A stretch of 64,000 bases of DNA from a bacterium (GCA_037200905.1 JBBCGN010000002.1:22879-86878), one strand, 5' to 3'; positions 7,977 to 63,646 are shown, counted from the stretch's first letter. Notes: generated from the letters alone by a model not told the origin. Numbers and translations: made by a program.

Positions 7977-7989
7977 GGGTCAGGTACCT
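7977..7989. repeat. Solo REP half-site
   Basis: GGGGTCAGGTACC shares the GGGGTCAG core. It sits at the island/core-genome boundary, just before the comFC stop. Confidence 0.45.
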
Positions 7990-8001
7990 TTTTGATTTTT
8001 G

Positions 8002-9913: not shown

Positions 9914-10528
9914 ATGGATAAAGATTTCCAAACATCGTTCATACCGAAGAAACCGATGACAGAAAAACGCTCAGGGGGGGACACGCCCGTGCATTTCCTG
10001 ACGGTCATCTCGCTCTTCGTATTCTTCACCGTGCTCATCGCCACCGGCGCGCTCTTCTTCTACAAGGCGGCGGTGGCCAAGAGCATCGCCAGCATGCAGA
10101 ACGACCTCGAGCTCACCAAGAACCGCTTCCAGCCGGAGAAGATCGCCGAACTGCAGACCCTCGACAAGCGCCTCAAGGCGGCGGGCGAGATTCTCGGCCA
10201 GCACATCAGCGTCACGCCGATCTTCGAGGCCCTCGAAGCCCTGACCATGAAGAGCGTGCGCTACACCAAATTCACCTATGCCCTCGCGAGCCAGGACAAC
10301 CCGAACATCTCCGTGAAGATGAGCGGCACCGCCGTGGGCTACCGCTCCATCGCGCTCCAGTCCGACCTCTTCGCCAAGAACAAGAGCATCATCGACCCGG
10401 TCTTTTCCAAGCTCACCCTCGACGATTCCGGCAACGTTTCCTTCGATCTCGACTTCTCGGTCGATCCGGCATTCGTCAATTACAAGGCAGATAGCGCGGC
10501 CGCGGCTCCGGATGCCGCCACGAATTAG
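9914..10528 (+). CDS. PilN-like bitopic pilus assembly protein
   Basis: It has a single N-terminal TM followed by a coiled-coil, and it sits directly after pilM. Confidence 0.6.
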   Translation: MDKDFQTSFIPKKPMTEKRSGGDTPVHFLTVISLFVFFTVLIATGALFFYKAAVAKSIASMQNDLELTKNRFQPEKIAELQTLDKRLKAAGEILGQHISVTPIFEALEALTMKSVRYTKFTYALASQDNPNISVKMSGTAVGYRSIALQSDLFAKNKSIIDPVFSKLTLDDSGNVSFDLDFSVDPAFVNYKADSAAAAPDAATN

Positions 10529-16797: not shown

Positions 16798-16860
16798 GGG
16801 AAAAGAGGTGTTTATTATTATCAAATTAATTTATCCCGTACAGGGAAAGTCTTTCATTAT

Positions 16861-17349
16861 ATGAAGAATAAAAAGCTATTACAAAGAGGTTTTACGCTCA
16901 TCGAATTGCTCGTGGTCGTGGCTATCATCGGCATTCTCGCTTCGGTCGTCCTTGCTTCGCTTAACTCCGCTCGCTCGAAGGGTACGGATGCCGCTATCAA
17001 GGCCGCTATGGCCAACGCTCGCGCTCAAGCCGAGCTCTTCTACGACGGCGGACAGACATATGCATCCGTATGCCAGTCGGGAACCACAGGCGGCGTATAT
17101 CCTATGATCCTGAACGCTGCCCAGAAGCTGCTTGCTACGGCTGCTCCCGTCACCGACGGTACTGCGGCTACCTATAGCGCAGCGGGTGCGAATGGATCAT
17201 CAGTCTGTCACGACTCCGCAGGCGCATGGGCTGCCTGGACGTCCTTGAAAGTTCCTGGGACCGCCGGCAACGGCTGGTGCGTGGACTCCGCAGGCGCTTC
17301 GAAGGAAACAACCCCTCTCGGCGCAAGTGCTACGGCATGTCCGGCATAG
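16861..17349 (+). CDS. Type IV major pilin paralog 2
   Basis: The N-terminus reads [52 protein letters not shown]. It shares its architecture with paralog 1. Confidence 0.9.
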
Positions 17350-17377
17350 TGAGATCGGCTTTTGCTTGATTGTCCTC

Positions 17378-17415
17378 AAAACACTCCGACCAGCATCGGA
17401 GTGTTTTTGCTTTTT
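17378..17415 (+). terminator. Rho-independent terminator after pilin 2
   Basis: The stem AAACACTCCGA/TCGGAGTGTTT is followed by TTGCTTTTT, the same tail as the pilin-1 terminator. Confidence 0.75.
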
Positions 17416-17420
17416 AGCTG

Positions 17421-17429
17421 TGATATAAT
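17421..17429 (+). promoter_or_regulatory. Extended -10 promoter candidate for pilin 3
   Basis: The sequence is TGATATAAT. Confidence 0.45.
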
Positions 17430-17476
17430 ATACGGGAAAGATTTATTATAAGAACTAACTCGACTCCGGGAATGTC

Positions 17477-17968
17477 ATGAAAAATCAAAAAGCGCTTCAC
17501 AAGGGTTTCACTTTAATCGAGCTTCTCGTCGTGGTGGCCATCATCGGCATCCTGGCGGCCGTGGTGCTCGCGGCGCTCGGTTCTGCCCGCAACCGCGGCG
17601 GCGATGCGGCCGTGCAGAGCAACTTGAACACCGTCCGCAACCAGGCGGAGATCTTCAACTCGAACAACGGCTATTCCTATCTGCCGAAATCCGGTTCCAT
17701 ATTTTCCGTCGGTCCGTGCCCGGCATACAACGCGAACGGCACGAACATGATCTCCCGCGACAAGCAGATCAACGCGGCCATCGTCGAGGCGGTGAAGCGC
17801 GGCGGCAACGGCAGCTCGTGCTACAACTCGGCCACGGCCTGGGCCGTGGCGGTGGGCCTGAAGACCAAGGCCAGCAATTCCTGGTGCGTCGATGCGGCCG
17901 GCAAGTCGAAGCTCGAGAATTTCGCCCCGAACGCCGCCATCAATGCGGCGACCGGCGCGTGCAAGTAA
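17477..17968 (+). CDS. Type IV pilin paralog 3 (more divergent)
   Basis: The N-terminus reads [34 protein letters not shown]. The C-terminus has WCVDAAGKSK and ends in GACK. Confidence 0.9.
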   Translation: MKNQKALHKGFTLIELLVVVAIIGILAAVVLAALGSARNRGGDAAVQSNLNTVRNQAEIFNSNNGYSYLPKSGSIFSVGPCPAYNANGTNMISRDKQINAAIVEAVKRGGNGSSCYNSATAWAVAVGLKTKASNSWCVDAAGKSKLENFAPNAAINAATGACK

Positions 17969-17978
17969 CGCATTCTTC

Positions 17979-18776
17979 ATGATAGCCATCCTCACAATCA
18001 TCTTCTTCGTTTTCGGCACCATCATCGGGAGCTTCTTGAACGTCGTCATCCTGCGCTTCAACACCGGCAAGACCGTGTCCGGCCGGAGCGCCTGCATGTC
18101 CTGCGAGCGGCAGCTCGCCTGGTACGACATGGTGCCCATAGCGAGCTATGCGGCCCTCCGCGGCCGCTGCCGCATGTGCAAGACCCGCATCTCCGCCCAG
18201 TATCCGCTCGTCGAGCTCGCCACGGGCCTCGTCTTCGCGGCCCTCTTCCACAAATTCGCCTACCTCTTCTTCGTGTCGACCTTCGCCTTCACGCTCTCGT
18301 ACGCCTACTACGGCGCCATGTTCGCCCTGCTCATCGTCATCGCCGCGTACGACCTGCGCCACAAGATCATCCCCGACGCCCTGTCATACGCCTTCGGCGT
18401 GCTGGCTTTCCTCGGCCTCTTCTTCTTCAGCCCGGGCAGTATCGGCATCCATATGCACGTGCCCACGCTCTCCGAAGCCCTGGCCGGCCTCGTGCTCTCG
18501 GTGCCGTTCGCCCTGCTGTGGTTCTTTTCCCGCGGGGCATGGATGGGCCTCGGCGACGCCAAGCTCGCCGTGGGCCTCGGGTTCCTGCTCGGCACGTCGC
18601 GATTGCTCTCGGGCGCGGTGCTCGCGTTCTGGGCCGGGGCCATCATCGGCATCATCCTGCTCGCATTCTCGAAGAAATACGGCATGAAGACCGAGGTCCC
18701 GTTCGCGCCGTTCCTGGTGCTCGGCGCCGTCATCGCCTTCTTCTGCCAGCTTTCCTTCTTCGCCATCGGCTCATAA
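17979..18776 (+). CDS. pilD: Prepilin peptidase / N-methyltransferase PilD (A24 family)
   Basis: I place the start at the ATG at 17979, in the frame of ORF 17892... It has a C-x2-C...C-x2-C zinc motif (CMSCERQ...CRMCKTR) and is a polytopic membrane protein. Confidence 0.85.
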   Translation: MIAILTIIFFVFGTIIGSFLNVVILRFNTGKTVSGRSACMSCERQLAWYDMVPIASYAALRGRCRMCKTRISAQYPLVELATGLVFAALFHKFAYLFFVSTFAFTLSYAYYGAMFALLIVIAAYDLRHKIIPDALSYAFGVLAFLGLFFFSPGSIGIHMHVPTLSEALAGLVLSVPFALLWFFSRGAWMGLGDAKLAVGLGFLLGTSRLLSGAVLAFWAGAIIGIILLAFSKKYGMKTEVPFAPFLVLGAVIAFFCQLSFFAIGS

Positions 18777-23401: not shown

Positions 23402-23486
23402 GGAGGCGTCGCATAGCGGTCTAGTGCGCACGCTTGGAAAGCGTGTGTGGGGCAACCCACCGAGAGTTCGAATCTCTCCGCCTCCG
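23402..23486 (+). tRNA. tRNA-Ser(GGA): tRNA-Ser (anticodon GGA), class II with a long variable arm
   Basis: The hand-folded cloverleaf has acceptor stem GGAGGCG/CGCCTCC. The anticodon stem is CACGC/GCGTG with loop TTGGAAA. The variable arm is GTGGGgcaaCCCAC, the T arm is GAGAG-TTCGAAT-CTCTC, and the discriminator is G. Confidence 0.9.
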
Positions 23487-24168: not shown

Positions 24169-24248
24169 ATTCTCATTTCTTTACTTTCAGGATGCCCGAT
24201 GATAGGGTAGGGGCAAACAACATTTCGAAAACTTAAAAAGGAGGTAGT

Positions 24249-24695
24249 ATGAAATTACGCGTTTACTTTGCCTGTGCCTTGACTCATTCGCCGCCTGATT
24301 TCCAGCAAAAAATAGCCAGCGTCAAAGAATGCTTAAAGGCTTTACCAGATGTAGAACTGCTCGATTTCGTCGGGCTGGTGGATGGTTCGCCTCAAGATGT
24401 GTACGAACATGATATTCATACTTGCGTAAAAAGCGCGGACCTTATCATTGCAGATTGTACGCATCCTGCCATTGGTTTGGGATGGGAACTTGGTGCTGCT
24501 ACTGAAGCATTCAGAAAGCATGTCTTTATCGTAGCGGCAGATGGTTCGCATCTCAGCCGATTGATTCATGGCGCAGTATCGCCGAGAAACTCGGATCTTG
24601 CATTTGCAACGTATGGTTCGCAACACGATCTGTTTATGATCTGTAAGGAGAGAATCGAATATGTTCAGGTACGCATTTCTAATTACGCAGAGTGA
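24249..24695 (+). CDS. Nucleoside 2-deoxyribosyltransferase-like Rossmann protein
   Basis: The pattern is RVYFACAL...SADLIIADCTHPAIGLGWELGAA...KHVFIV. It is one of the few genes here with a canonical SD (AAGGAGG at 24237-24243). Confidence 0.6.
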   Translation: MKLRVYFACALTHSPPDFQQKIASVKECLKALPDVELLDFVGLVDGSPQDVYEHDIHTCVKSADLIIADCTHPAIGLGWELGAATEAFRKHVFIVAADGSHLSRLIHGAVSPRNSDLAFATYGSQHDLFMICKERIEYVQVRISNYAE

Positions 24696-37565: not shown

Positions 37566-37609
37566 GCGTCGCGCCGAAAGGACTGGCGCGACCTGATTCG
37601 CAAAATCAT
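37566..37609 (+). promoter_or_regulatory. Conserved two-hairpin leader element, copy 1, abutting the rplC start codon
   Basis: The GC hairpin is GTCGCGCC-GAAAGGACT-GGCGCGAC. The second hairpin is TGATT-CGCAA-AATCA, followed by T and then ATG (37610). Confidence 0.7.
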
Positions 37610-43318: not shown

Positions 43319-43885
43319 ATGAAACACTTAACTGTAAAAGAAAAAGGAGAGGGAAGCTACGAAGCCATGAAGGCAGCGTTCGGCTACAAGAACAAGATGT
43401 CCGCTCCGAAGCTGGAGAAGGTCATTATCAACGTCGGTACCGGCACGATGGTCAAGAAGGACAAGAACAAGAATACCGCTATCAGCGACCGCTTGGCAAA
43501 GATCACCGGGCAGAAGACCGCTCTCCGCGGCGCGAAGCAGTCTATCTCTTCCTTCAAGATCCGCCAGGGCGACCCAGTCGGCGTCATGGTAACCATGCGC
43601 GGCAAGCGCATGTATGCCTTCCTCGAGAAGCTCATCAACGTAGCTCTGCCTCGTACCAAGGACTTCCGCGGCATCAATCCGGGCGCTGTGGATGACATCG
43701 GCAATATCACCATCGGCATCAAGGAACACACGATCTTCCCTGAAACTGCGGACGAAGATATCCGCGACGTGTTCGGCCTCGCTATCACCATCGTCTCATC
43801 CGCCAAGAGCAAGAAAGAAGGCAAGGCTTTCTTCGAATTCATCGGCATTCCGTTCAAAAAGGAAGAGGATAAGAAGAAGAGATAG
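43319..43885 (+). CDS. rplE: 50S ribosomal protein L5
   Basis: It is an L5 family sequence; 188 aa. Confidence 0.95.
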   Translation: MKHLTVKEKGEGSYEAMKAAFGYKNKMSAPKLEKVIINVGTGTMVKKDKNKNTAISDRLAKITGQKTALRGAKQSISSFKIRQGDPVGVMVTMRGKRMYAFLEKLINVALPRTKDFRGINPGAVDDIGNITIGIKEHTIFPETADEDIRDVFGLAITIVSSAKSKKEGKAFFEFIGIPFKKEEDKKKR

Positions 43886-43888
43886 GGG

Positions 43889-43917
43889 TTTGACTAACAG
43901 GCGAGAGTCTGCTAGTA
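43889..43917 (+). promoter_or_regulatory. Internal promoter candidate in the rplE-rpsN spacer
   Basis: The arrangement is GGGGTTTGACT-N17-(TGC)TAGTAT. It shares the GGTTTGAC...TGCTAnTAT pattern with the tuf promoter candidate; the rpsS candidate reads TATTTGAC at the -35 end and shares only TTTGAC...TGCTAATAT. Confidence 0.5.
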
Positions 43918-44035
43918 TGGGAACACGTGAGATGCAGATCCGTTCTTCTCCTTAAGCGCCCAAGTGATATTGATTTATAAGGGTATTTAAGAAATAGAAC
44001 GAGATATCGCACTTCGCAGAAGGGGAATTAATTTT

Positions 44036-44079
44036 GCGTCGCGCCAAATCGACTTGCGCGACGTGATTTGCAAAATCAT
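44036..44079 (+). promoter_or_regulatory. Conserved two-hairpin leader element, copy 2, abutting the rpsN start codon
   Basis: The GC hairpin is CGTCGCGC-CAAATCGACTT-GCGCGACG. The second hairpin is TGATT-TGCAA-AATCA, followed by T and then ATG (44080). Confidence 0.7.
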
Positions 44080-44265
44080 ATGGCAAAAACATCAGTATTA
44101 GCTAGAAATGCAAAGAAAAAGAAGTTTTCTACTCGCGAGAAAAACCGATGTTTTCGCTGCGGCCGCGGCAACGGCTATATGAGAGACTTCGGCATCTGCC
44201 GCATCTGCTTCCGCGAGCTTGCCAACGAAGGCATGCTTCCGGGCGTCCGCAAGTCTAGCTGGTAA
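44080..44265 (+). CDS. rpsN: 30S ribosomal protein S14, type Z (zinc-binding, 61 aa)
   Basis: It begins [16 protein letters not shown] and has the CFRCG...CRICF zinc motif. Confidence 0.93.
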
Positions 44266-57649: not shown

Positions 57650-57705
57650 GTGTGATTTTGCGAATCACGTCGCGCAAGTCCTTTTGGCGCGACGCTTTCT
57701 AATTA
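57650..57705 (-). promoter_or_regulatory. Conserved two-hairpin leader element, copy 3, between rpmI and rplT
   Basis: On the minus strand it reads GCGTCGCGC-CAAAAGGACTT-GCGCGACG, then TGATT-CGCAA-AATCA, then CAC-ATG. Confidence 0.7.
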
Positions 57706-57712
57706 TTTTTAA

Positions 57713-57907
57713 TTAACTGAACGGCATCAAATGGCTCTTCGGCTTGTTCTTGATGACGAAGTTTTCGCCCTTGCGGCCGGCGAGCTGGGTGTTTCTCGAC
57801 TGCTTGGCGTTGAAATGGTTGAAGCCGGGCTTGCGCGAGATCACCTTGCCATTCTTCGTGACTTTCAATCTCTTGCTGAACGATTTGTTTGTTTTCATTC
57901 CTTTCAT
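57713..57907 (-). CDS. rpmI: 50S ribosomal protein L35
   Basis: It begins MKGMKTNKSFSKRLKVTKNGK. Confidence 0.9.
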   Translation of the reverse strand: MKGMKTNKSFSKRLKVTKNGKVISRKPGFNHFNAKQSRNTQLAGRKGENFVIKNKPKSHLMPFS

Positions 57908-63239: not shown

Positions 63240-63244
63240 GTATG

Positions 63245-63646
63245 TGGAGATGGCGAGAATTGAACTCGCGTGCAGAAGGGTTTTGCAGAGAAGTCTACGT
63301 GCGTAGCGCGCTTTTTGTTTTAAATCGGAAAGCTAATAAGCGGGCGAAATATTTTCCGATCGAGCCCTAGGTTTTCGTCTCCGACCTCAAGCCGGGTCGG
63401 AGCTTATCCCGATAATATTATGCCCGTGCCGTATATATCGGAAGTCTATACGTCGGACACCAGCTCGCGCGCTTACGCGAAGGCTGGAGCGAATGCGAAG
63501 TCCGCCTTACCGAAGTAAGGTGAAAGTCGAGCAAGCGCTTTGGAAGCTGATTTTGCAATTAGCTTGAGAACGAATTTTTACGAGATTACGTTCATGCTCG
63601 GCATGCATCAATGGCAAAATTCCAACTGTCTATGCCTGGCATCCCC
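63245..63646 (-). ncRNA. ssrA: tmRNA (SsrA), ~402 nt
   Basis: On the minus strand the 5' GGGGATG pairs with the 3' CATCTCC, giving a G3:U wobble, with discriminator A. The T-arm is GCGAG-TTCAATT-CTCGC. The block GCATGCCGAG...CTCGTAAAAA resembles E. coli tmRNA. The tag ORF is GCA AAA TCA GCT ... GCC TTC GCG TAA, encoding AKSASKALARLSPYFGKADFAFAPAFA*. Confidence 0.85.

Follow-up and report, generated by a model that had tools for sequence, protein, structure and literature searches.

A 43-nucleotide two-hairpin element at a near-constant distance before the start codons of diverse Paceibacteria genes probably acts in RNA on translation start

Three copies of one unit before ribosomal-protein genes

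We analysed a 64,000-nucleotide (nt) stretch of a bacterial genome assembly (GCA_037200905.1, JBBCGN010000002.1:22879-86878; hereafter the window), in which a two-hairpin element lies directly before the start codon of rpsN, the gene for ribosomal protein S14. The repeated unit is 43 nt long and occurs three times in the window, each time directly before an ATG, that of rplC, rpsN or rplT, in neighbourhoods that Pfam assigned to S10, L3, L5, S14 (61 amino acids, aa), S8, IF3, L35 and L20. An initial annotation, made from the sequence alone, had described the rpsN copy at 44036-44082 as GCGTCGCGC-CAAATCGACTT-GCGCGACG-TGATT-TGCAA-AATCA-T-ATG, homologous to the copies before rplC and rplT, and both the sequence and the three-way homology were confirmed (pairwise identity 86-93%). 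Here we refer to the hairpins as P1 and P2 in 5' to 3' order, and to the P1 loop as loop A. The copies and the features around the rpsN start are as follows.

37566-37609, + strand: copy 1 (61.5 bits), occupying most of the 59-nt rpsJ-rplC spacer
37566-37608, + strand: unit of copy 1, with P1 37568-37575 paired with 37585-37592, and P2 37594-37608
37610, + strand: rplC ATG, 1 nt past the unit of copy 1; P1-ATG distance 17 nt
43886-44035, + strand: upstream 150 nt of the rplE-rpsN spacer, outside the repeat, holding the promoter-like site
43890-43918, + strand: promoter-like site, TTGACT-17-TAGTAT, with TG just ahead of the second hexamer
44036-44063, + strand: P1 of copy 2, stem CGTCGCGC (44037-44044) paired with GCGCGACG (44056-44063)
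44045-44055, + strand: loop of copy 2 P1, CAAATCGACTT
44064-44078, + strand: P2 of copy 2, weak and AU-rich, TGATT(T) pairing with (A)AATCA around a GCA loop
44079-44082, + strand: 1-nt spacer (T) and rpsN start codon (ATG); 17 nt separate the end of P1 (..CGAC) from the A of ATG
44080-44265, + strand: rpsN, a short 61-aa S14 with CxxC motifs (Pfam Ribosomal_S14, E = 4.7e-23)
57650-57695, - strand: copy 3 (72.9 bits), between rpmI and rplT
57695-57653, - strand: unit of copy 3, after the rpmI stop codon (ending at 57713) and before the rplT ATG (57649-57647), with a 3-nt spacer (CAC); P1-ATG distance 19 nt

The similarity among the three copies was well beyond that of shuffled controls: a 23-nt core pattern with up to three mismatches matched exactly three sites in the window, against none expected from 100 dinucleotide shuffles, and the stem pattern matched four sites against 0.13 expected. 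A covariance model run unfiltered over the whole window scored the three copies at 61.5-72.9 bits and its next best match at 12.6 bits, revealing no further copies in the 64 kb. The rplE-rpsN spacer measured 194 nt (43886-44079), as initially annotated, and the promoter-like signal reported within it was present, although its status as a promoter is plausible but unproven (11 such sites compared to 5.5 +/- 2.6 after shuffling). No relatives of the upstream 150 nt of this spacer were found in the window or in the collected loci, and we rejected the idea that this segment belongs to a larger repeat or cassette, as only the 43-nt unit is repeated. A mechanical open reading frame (ORF) call for rpsN started at a TTG inside P2 (44068-44265, 65 aa), adding LQNH before the conserved MAKTS N-terminus; gene callers thus mis-start genes here, and the element marks the true start. 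An exact look-up of the 61-aa protein returned no record, possibly owing to a different start in deposited gene calls.

Distribution of the element across genomes and metagenomes

At least about 85 further occurrences were found in genomes and metagenomes of Paceibacteria of the Nomurabacteria type. A scan of representative genomes, taking one genome per species and the pattern CGACNTGATTNGCAAAATCA with the 5' arm of P1 left free, returned 109 stretches, 45 of which were full copies and a few more of which were variants, the remainder being chance matches in unrelated organisms. In metagenomes, a scan built around hairpin 1, hairpin 2 being unconstrained, returned at least 120 stretches with at least 38 true copies, while the others among the matches listed were GC-rich coding matches. 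Copies from titled records were all of Paceibacteria type (labelled Nomurabacteria, Paceibacterota, Taylorbacteria, Minisyncoccia or 'Patescibacteria group'), with exceptions in label for eight copies under Saccharibacteria, from third-party assemblies, and two under just 'bacterium'. The L3 protein of the window matched one annotated only 'MAG: bacterium' at 100% identity and the L3 proteins of Nomurabacteria and Paceibacterota at about 80%, which places the window in that group. Viral contigs held no copies, as two pattern scans gave chance matches only, and a phage origin of the element was rejected on that basis.

Copy number was low, with at least one to three copies per representative genome under the strict pattern and three in the 64 kb of the window, and copies within a genome were slightly more alike (0.91) than copies from different genomes (0.86). 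Around 10% of copies were orphans that lacked an ATG. These included a copy between a stop codon and a terminator (L192), copies at L182, L232 and L223, one that is antisense to both flanking genes (L044) and one that falls within an ORF (L015). Compound copies also occurred, with a complete second unit nested in loop A, while orthologues carry a simple copy at the same sites.

Pairing and sequence conservation in the two hairpins

Standard pairs filled 95.5% of cells across 74 distinct copies and seven of the 13 pairs showed double compensatory changes, in 25 cells (three of the seven pairs in P1 and four of the six in P2), counts that we take as supportive and not as a formal test, because the copies are related and the search patterns fixed part of each hairpin. 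None of 500 shuffles matched the pairing and covariation values, and pairing fell to 15-52% in controls with the 3' partners shifted by 1-3 columns. The hairpins are directly adjacent, with 8-9 base pairs (bp) in P1 and 5-6 bp in P2. The foot of P1 is conserved (GUCG/CGAC), while its upper stem varies with compensation (CGCG/CGCG, AGU/ACU, CAU/AUG, UGUU/AACA and CGCAC/GUGCG). In the scan that left hairpin 2 free, P2 occurred as UGAUUU-CGCA-AAAUCA or UGAUUC-CGCA-GAAUCA, the sixth pair being C-G in 11 and U-A in 48 copies, and the inner units of compound copies had CGAUUC/GAAUCG, CGGUUU/AAACCG or UAAUUU/AAAUUA.

Predicted energies differed markedly between the hairpins, at about -10 to -13 kcal/mol for P1 across the family (-13.1 in copy 2) and -0.5 to -3.8 kcal/mol for P2 (-0.5 to -1.0 among the window copies, -1.0 in copy 2). 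Hairpin 1 was present in every predicted fold. Hairpin 2, predicted to be thermodynamically marginal, owes its support to covariation in relatives and not to energy.

Unpaired positions were conserved as well. Loop A reads C-A-A-A-W-N-G-A-C-U-U and varies only at its two central positions (AG, UC, UU or UG), with variants that include AAAGGAC, AAAUUGAC and AAAUCGAC, and the GGA in the loop is swapped for UGA or CGA in around one-third of copies. The P2 loop, YGCA, is conserved, and compound copies have the AAAGGAC loop relocated to the inner hairpin, where it is still displayed. A mutual-information scan for a pseudoknot or long-range partner of the variable loop positions returned neighbouring loop positions only, and pairing between the loop and P2 was rejected by eye, as it would involve many A.C mismatches.

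Because the stems change while complementarity persists, and orientation is tied to the gene, the element is a structure at the level of RNA and not a DNA operator. It did not resemble an intrinsic terminator, having a loop of 11-13 nt and the following sequence GUGAUUUGCAAAAUCA, and none of the three window copies was called by a terminator scan. Searches against Rfam 15 at the gathering threshold returned just the transfer-messenger RNA (tmRNA) and one tRNA in the whole window, whereas at E <= 10 the interval 43880-44110 gave two chance-level matches, to microRNA and long non-coding RNA models; five AT-rich loci bearing the element gave no match at the element.

Genes preceded by the element

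Genes directly downstream belonged to at least 35 different families, as judged by Pfam and N-terminal sequences, and most were not ribosomal proteins. The commonest was nusA, with at least nine copies. Further hosts in transcription and translation encoded a sigma-region-4/HARE-HTH protein, S12 (rpsL), S11 (rpsK), L10 (rplJ), L7/L12 (rplL) and EF-Ts, and those in RNA processing and modification encoded RNase III (rnc, at L160) and RsmH. The remaining hosts spanned chaperone, division and replication functions (DnaK, cyclophilin, FtsZ, GyrA, SSB, HU, a DnaQ-like exonuclease and a ribonucleotide-reductase-like protein), secretion and membrane functions (SecE, SecF, TatC and a small mechanosensitive-channel-like protein), energy and metabolism (AtpA, the C-terminal subunit of transketolase, cupredoxin and CutA) and others (a VirD4/HerA-like ATPase, DUF5679, DUF134, PIG-L and ComM). 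The hosts were housekeeping genes and often the second gene of a pair, as in secD-secF, rplJ-rplL, rpsB-tsf, atpH-atpA, the transketolase N and C subunits, rpmI-rplT and rpsJ-rplC. On one contig both rplJ (L10) and rplL (L7/L12) bore the element, about 600 nt apart (L174:4588-4633 and 5179-5225).

The three hosts in the window, rplC, rpsN and rplT, were not found among the hosts of the roughly 85 other copies listed. A model search of the S10/spc regions of seven loci, with L3 proteins 80-84% identical to that of the window, found the element absent, the rpsJ-rplC spacer there being 5-29 nt. Compared to the spacers of these relatives, the rplC copy takes the place of the 20 nt adjoining the ATG with nothing added, and no target-site duplication was found at this copy.

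Spacing to the start codon and transcriptional context

Approximately 90% of copies were in sense orientation with an ATG 0-3 nt downstream. Among 62 distinct copies, the spacer between element and ATG was 0-3 nt in 58 and 0-1 nt in 46, and the distance from the P1 foot to the ATG, the best-kept feature of all, was 17 nt in 39 and 16-18 nt in 49; window copies 1 and 2 follow this 17-nt rule, while copy 3 has 19 nt. P2 length and spacer were associated (hypergeometric p ~2e-4, relatedness ignored), as the 15-nt form of P2 was followed by a 1-nt spacer in 32 copies and no spacer in four, whereas the 16-nt form was followed by no spacer in seven copies and 1 nt in two. Since the two lengths compensate, the conserved quantity is the nucleotide count from P1 and not the gap after P2, which fits an unfolded P2. 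In 158 other genes, stable hairpins were seldom present in the 16 nt next to the ATG and became frequent from 17 nt onwards, which puts P1 at that boundary and counts as weak evidence for the role proposed below.

Strong extended -10 boxes lay 5-7 nt before P1 in 17 of 67 copies, in which case P1 would be a 5'-terminal hairpin, or lay 21-29 nt upstream; the candidate promoter of copy 2 lies about 120 nt upstream of the element. Around one-third of copies, including copies 1 and 3 of the window, began 0-25 nt past the stop codon that ends a same-strand ORF upstream, and the element thus often makes up the whole intercistronic spacer. From these positions the element is predicted to be transcribed, in 5' untranslated regions and at tight operon junctions alike. 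We rejected readings of the element as a promoter (sigma-70, sigma-54 or leaderless), as the hexamers at the required positions were unlike the -10 boxes of the clade. The nusA leaders at seven loci (L002, L066, L091, L109, L140, L162 and L208) also carried, some 20 nt ahead of the element, a terminator-like hairpin that is conserved (GAGUCCUGUCGNAACAGGRCUUUUUU) and has a -10 box in front of it in some loci, and this hairpin could be a NusA-dependent attenuator.

The 16S tail and leaderless genes in the lineage

Related 16S rRNA genes were recovered from four loci, one near an element (L183, 1-1620, minus strand) and three by way of a conserved neighbouring phosphatase gene (L247, L248 and L250, where the 16S gene lies about 2 kb upstream of the gene at 10001). 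All four end in ...CUGGUCGUG-GAAUAAUUCAAUUUGAAAAA, with GUG before GAAUAAUUCAAUUUGAAAAA, and then diverge, and none contains CCUCC. After helix 45 they have the 3' tail GGAAUAAUUCAAUUUGAAAAA in place of GAUCACCUCCUUA, and because the genes are identical up to that point and divergent beyond it, this tail is suggested to be the mature, constrained end of the 16S rRNA. The anti-Shine-Dalgarno motif has been reported missing in a subgroup of Parcubacteria (PMC9297842), with which the tails, as read from these genes, agree.

Shine-Dalgarno-like 4-mers preceded six of 56 starts in the window, compared to 19% at random positions; in a genome of 53% G+C, A+T made up 68% of the 25 nt preceding the starts. 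One textbook Shine-Dalgarno sequence was observed at 24230-24250 (AAAAAGGAGGTAGT-ATG, the ATG of the gene being at 24249) in a genome that otherwise avoids such sequences; this would be odd for a ribosome lacking the anti-Shine-Dalgarno motif, and the gene may have been acquired recently. Of 53 genes in the three 20-kb loci L247, L248 and L250, 20 had an extended -10-like box (TGnTATAAT-like) whose end lay 6-7 nt ahead of the ATG, and the same, smaller peak was present in the window at seven of 57 genes (for example, the starts at 7167, 8768 and 24751 on the plus strand and 59855 on the minus strand). So sharp a peak points to widespread leaderless mRNAs in the clade, and our literature search found no published account of leaderless initiation in this group.

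We also considered whether loop A or the linker pairs with the 16S tail as a new kind of Shine-Dalgarno sequence, a candidate that was rejected because shuffled tails did as well as the real tail across the family. With the tail taken from the four related contigs, its duplex energy was matched by 19% of shuffled tails for loop A and by 68% for linker plus P2. The loop at L183, CAAAUUGA, is a perfect 8-nt complement of UCAAUUUG in the tail, and such perfect pairing was confined to the AAAUUGA loop variant. No complementarity of the tail to gene upstream regions in general was found. A likeness of the element to 16S helix 45 plus tail was likewise rejected, as the model gave no match on the four 16S 3' ends, and a scan of viral contigs aimed at 16S tails returned a chance match only.

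Proposed role and alternative explanations

Taken together, these results make it very probable that the element governs the translation start of the downstream gene at the RNA level and that it is not specific to ribosomal proteins. Its manner of action is a more tentative matter. We suggest, as a reading that is quite possible if somewhat short of probable, that it is a portable, cis-acting translation-start module independent of Shine-Dalgarno pairing, in which P1 would be anchored where the mRNA exits the ribosome. The mRNA channel of the 30S subunit has room for around 15 nt 5' of the P-site codon. The weak, AU-rich P2 would melt during initiation, and its 15-16 nt and the spacer would then occupy the upstream portion of this channel, while the stable P1 with its conserved loop would stay folded at the channel exit on the platform. 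Folded P1 would thereby position the mRNA with the ATG in the P site, replacing the helix that a Shine-Dalgarno sequence forms with its anti-Shine-Dalgarno counterpart, and the downstream cistron would gain an initiation site of its own that depends neither on the upstream gene nor on a 5'-terminal ATG. Either the ribosome itself or a separate protein may be the partner of the conserved loop. This mechanism is consistent with the compensation between P2 length and spacer and with the gap in stability between P1 and P2, and weakly with the hairpin positions in the 158 other genes. Put in broader terms, which we regard as possible but doubtful, structured RNA would have replaced pairing in a mostly leaderless lineage without the anti-Shine-Dalgarno motif, serving the genes that are unable to be leaderless through a 43-nt cassette that works like an internal ribosome entry site (IRES), a 'hairpin ruler' with P1 docked exactly 17 nt upstream.

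Several points weigh against such an anchor. Contact with the ribosome is something we infer, and the 16S tail is not complementary beyond chance to loop A or the linker. Close relatives show patchy occupancy, with apparently few copies per genome, whereas a core initiation mechanism would be expected to be steadier, and about 10% of copies are orphans without an ATG. Because promoter-proximal copies could be leaderless, the element must add more than a start site, and the strong sequence conservation of P2 and loop A would also be expected of a protein operator.

An operator of a lineage-specific global RNA-binding regulator, a protein that reads loop A and P2 and either bars the ribosome from the adjacent ATG or licenses its entry there, so that growth genes are co-regulated, would indeed account no less well than an anchor for the sequence conservation of the loop and P2. 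The nucleotides conserved in loop A and in the YGCA of P2 are unpaired, the AAAGGAC loop stays displayed in compound copies, the gene set is growth-related with an RNA-binding protein encoded by its top host, nusA, and the orphan before a terminator at L192 could be a decoy RNA. However, this reading names no candidate protein, the set of element-bearing genes shifts between close relatives at few copies per genome, about one-third of copies have UGA or CGA in place of the loop GGA, and an operator does not demand a nucleotide-exact 17-nt rule from P1 to ATG whatever the length of P2; we consider it rather unlikely. The close approach of the ATG (0-1 nt past the element in 46 of 62 copies, at many junctions within operons) would also suit a signal for processing or stability, with P1 blocking 5'-to-3' decay by RNase J or a nuclease cut freeing a leaderless mRNA that starts at the ATG, in a lineage where leaderless mRNAs are widespread and the anti-Shine-Dalgarno motif is lacking. 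Bacteria of the candidate phyla radiation (CPR), which include Paceibacteria, keep both RNase J and RNase III (PMC12641178); RNase J genes are present at L247 and L250, rnc itself bears the element at L160, and P1 would be 5'-terminal in the copies with a -10 box 5-7 nt before it. Conservation of the count from P1, and not of the distance from the 3' foot of P2, is awkward for a nuclease that measures structure, both stems (8-9 and 5-6 bp) are short for RNase III, a plain stabilising hairpin needs neither a conserved loop nor P2, and genes with their own promoter could just be leaderless. Processing or stabilisation is therefore unlikely in our judgement.

The patchy occupancy of orthologous sites, the orphans (one antisense to both neighbours, one within an ORF), the nesting of a second unit in loop A and the greater similarity within genomes (0.91 compared to 0.86 between genomes) could all be expected if the element were a selfish or neutral palindromic repeat, like repetitive extragenic palindromes (REP) or miniature inverted-repeat transposable elements (MITEs), that spreads by duplication or gene conversion and is tolerated before start codons. 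Around 90% of copies nevertheless share orientation, a position 0-3 nt before the ATG and the 17-nt rule, features that REP and MITE repeats do not show. Copy number is low, the rplC copy stands in place of the final 20 nt of its spacer with no target-site duplication, no transposase was seen nearby and viral contigs lacked copies. Compensatory changes indicate selection for pairing and, with the fixed orientation and position, argue that most copies are under selection, which leaves this account quite unlikely. Action at the DNA level, as a palindromic operator of a dimeric transcription factor or as a promoter, would draw on the inverted repeats in both halves and on the resemblance of TTGACT loop variants to a -35 box, yet stem changes such as CGCG/CGCG to CAU/AUG or UGUU/AACA would ruin protein half-sites, the element is strictly oriented with its gene, the position used by the clade's own promoters lacks a -10-like hexamer, and many copies are within operons right past a stop codon, making such action very improbable. 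The initial annotation had read the element as a ribosomal-protein leader possibly bound by S14 or S8. A two-hairpin leader reaching the start codon, with homologous copies, is indeed present, but its ascribed role was not borne out, given the 35 or more gene families served and the relatives that lack the element before rplC. Autogenous control, with S14, S8, L3 or L20 binding a mimic of its rRNA site and repressing its own operon, would accord with all three window copies preceding ribosomal-protein genes and with other copies before rpsL, rpsK, rplJ and rplL. An autogenous operator would be expected to remain with its own operon. The majority of copies instead precede other genes, rplC, rpsN and rplT are not hosts elsewhere, one identical element before three unrelated operons mismatches a mimic of one protein's rRNA site, and no Rfam leader family matched. 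Because the hosts are so diverse and the element is not kept at orthologous rplC sites, the functional suggestion is unsupported; the leader reading is largely refuted by the distribution, and we give it hardly any weight.

These findings bear on how start codons are chosen on internal cistrons in bacteria without the anti-Shine-Dalgarno motif, an open question for which the uncultured, ultra-small Paceibacteria are an extreme case. A sequence-defined RNA of 43 nt that can be synthesised, with a nucleotide-exact distance rule, offers a handle on that question, and if it is a ribosome-positioning or protein-operator module, it would provide a compact part for controlling translation without Shine-Dalgarno sequences.

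Other features of the window and related loci

Two genes for structured RNAs were identified in the window by Rfam.

23402-23486, + strand: tRNA gene
63242-63646, - strand: tmRNA gene (110 bits)

A low-GC island at 4001-8000 (37-43% G+C compared to 50-62% elsewhere) contains several short ORFs whose upstream regions are AT-rich and may be acquired DNA. In relatives, the S10/spc cluster is broken by foreign genes at the rplB-rpsS and rplE-rpsN/rpsH junctions, which encode a 2373-aa RHS/SpvB toxin, HicA and a pilin-like N_methyl protein, and the long rplE-rpsN spacer of the window falls at one such interruption hot spot. The interruptions were located as follows.

L110:12544-13888
L112:4026-11668
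L116:12557-13159 and 16860-18295

At L078, a 23S rRNA gene (around 1-4000, minus strand) comes right after an element-bearing membrane-protein gene, and because it begins with no 16S gene upstream, the rRNA genes of that genome are unlinked.

Comparison with known systems

A full-text literature search found no papers on the element sequence or related topics, many subscription papers being outside its coverage. The element belongs to none of the classes of ribosomal-protein leaders, Shine-Dalgarno-type elements, REP or MITE repeats, and terminators. Its compensatory pairs and its fixed, gene-defined position on the sense strand are those of structured cis-acting mRNA elements in general, among which it would be placed on present sequence evidence.

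Like Shine-Dalgarno anchoring, including the hairpin-bridged site of phage T4 gene 38 and ribosome standby sites, the element would position the mRNA on the small subunit through a cis feature at a fixed distance upstream of the start codon, and would likewise give internal cistrons an initiation site of their own. The Shine-Dalgarno helix is, however, intermolecular and lies 5-9 nt upstream, whereas the anchor proposed here would be an intramolecular hairpin 17 nt upstream, in an element with no above-chance complementarity to the 16S tail and a lineage without CCUCC. Ribosomal-protein leaders (Rfam L20_leader, the S10 leader bound by L4, the S8 site of the spc operon) are likewise structured RNAs just upstream of ribosomal-protein cistrons, internal ones included, but the present element is near-identical at 35 or more unrelated families, is not kept at orthologous sites and has no Rfam match. 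CsrA/RsmA sites, with A(N)GGA in hairpin loops, and the RegA operators of phage T4 share with it a multi-gene distribution and an A-rich GGA loop displayed by a hairpin near the start codon; unlike CsrA sites, the element does not have an invariant GGA, is far larger and more conserved, and obeys an exact spacing rule.

Among repeats, REP sequences, bacterial interspersed mosaic elements (BIMEs) and MITEs are also short, GC-rich intergenic palindromes, found within operons too, with patchy occurrence, nested copies and orphans, yet the element differs from them in its fixed orientation and position relative to the ATG, its few copies per genome, its pairing-preserving covariation and the lack of any transposase seen. 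Mitochondrial tRNA punctuation and the RNase III sites of phage T7 similarly place structure directly before start codons, in settings of leaderless translation free of Shine-Dalgarno sequences, but the element matches neither tRNA nor any Rfam family, its stems are too short for classic RNase III and cleavage here would be hypothetical. Stabilisers at mRNA 5' ends, such as the ompA leader of E. coli and aprE of B. subtilis, resemble it in having a stable hairpin near the 5' end under 5'-end-dependent decay (RNase J being present), but need no conserved loop, second hairpin or fixed distance to the ATG, all three of which the element has. Among known systems, the element thus resembles a structured leader at the ribosome-binding site, with a real chance that it represents a new mode of start-site selection.

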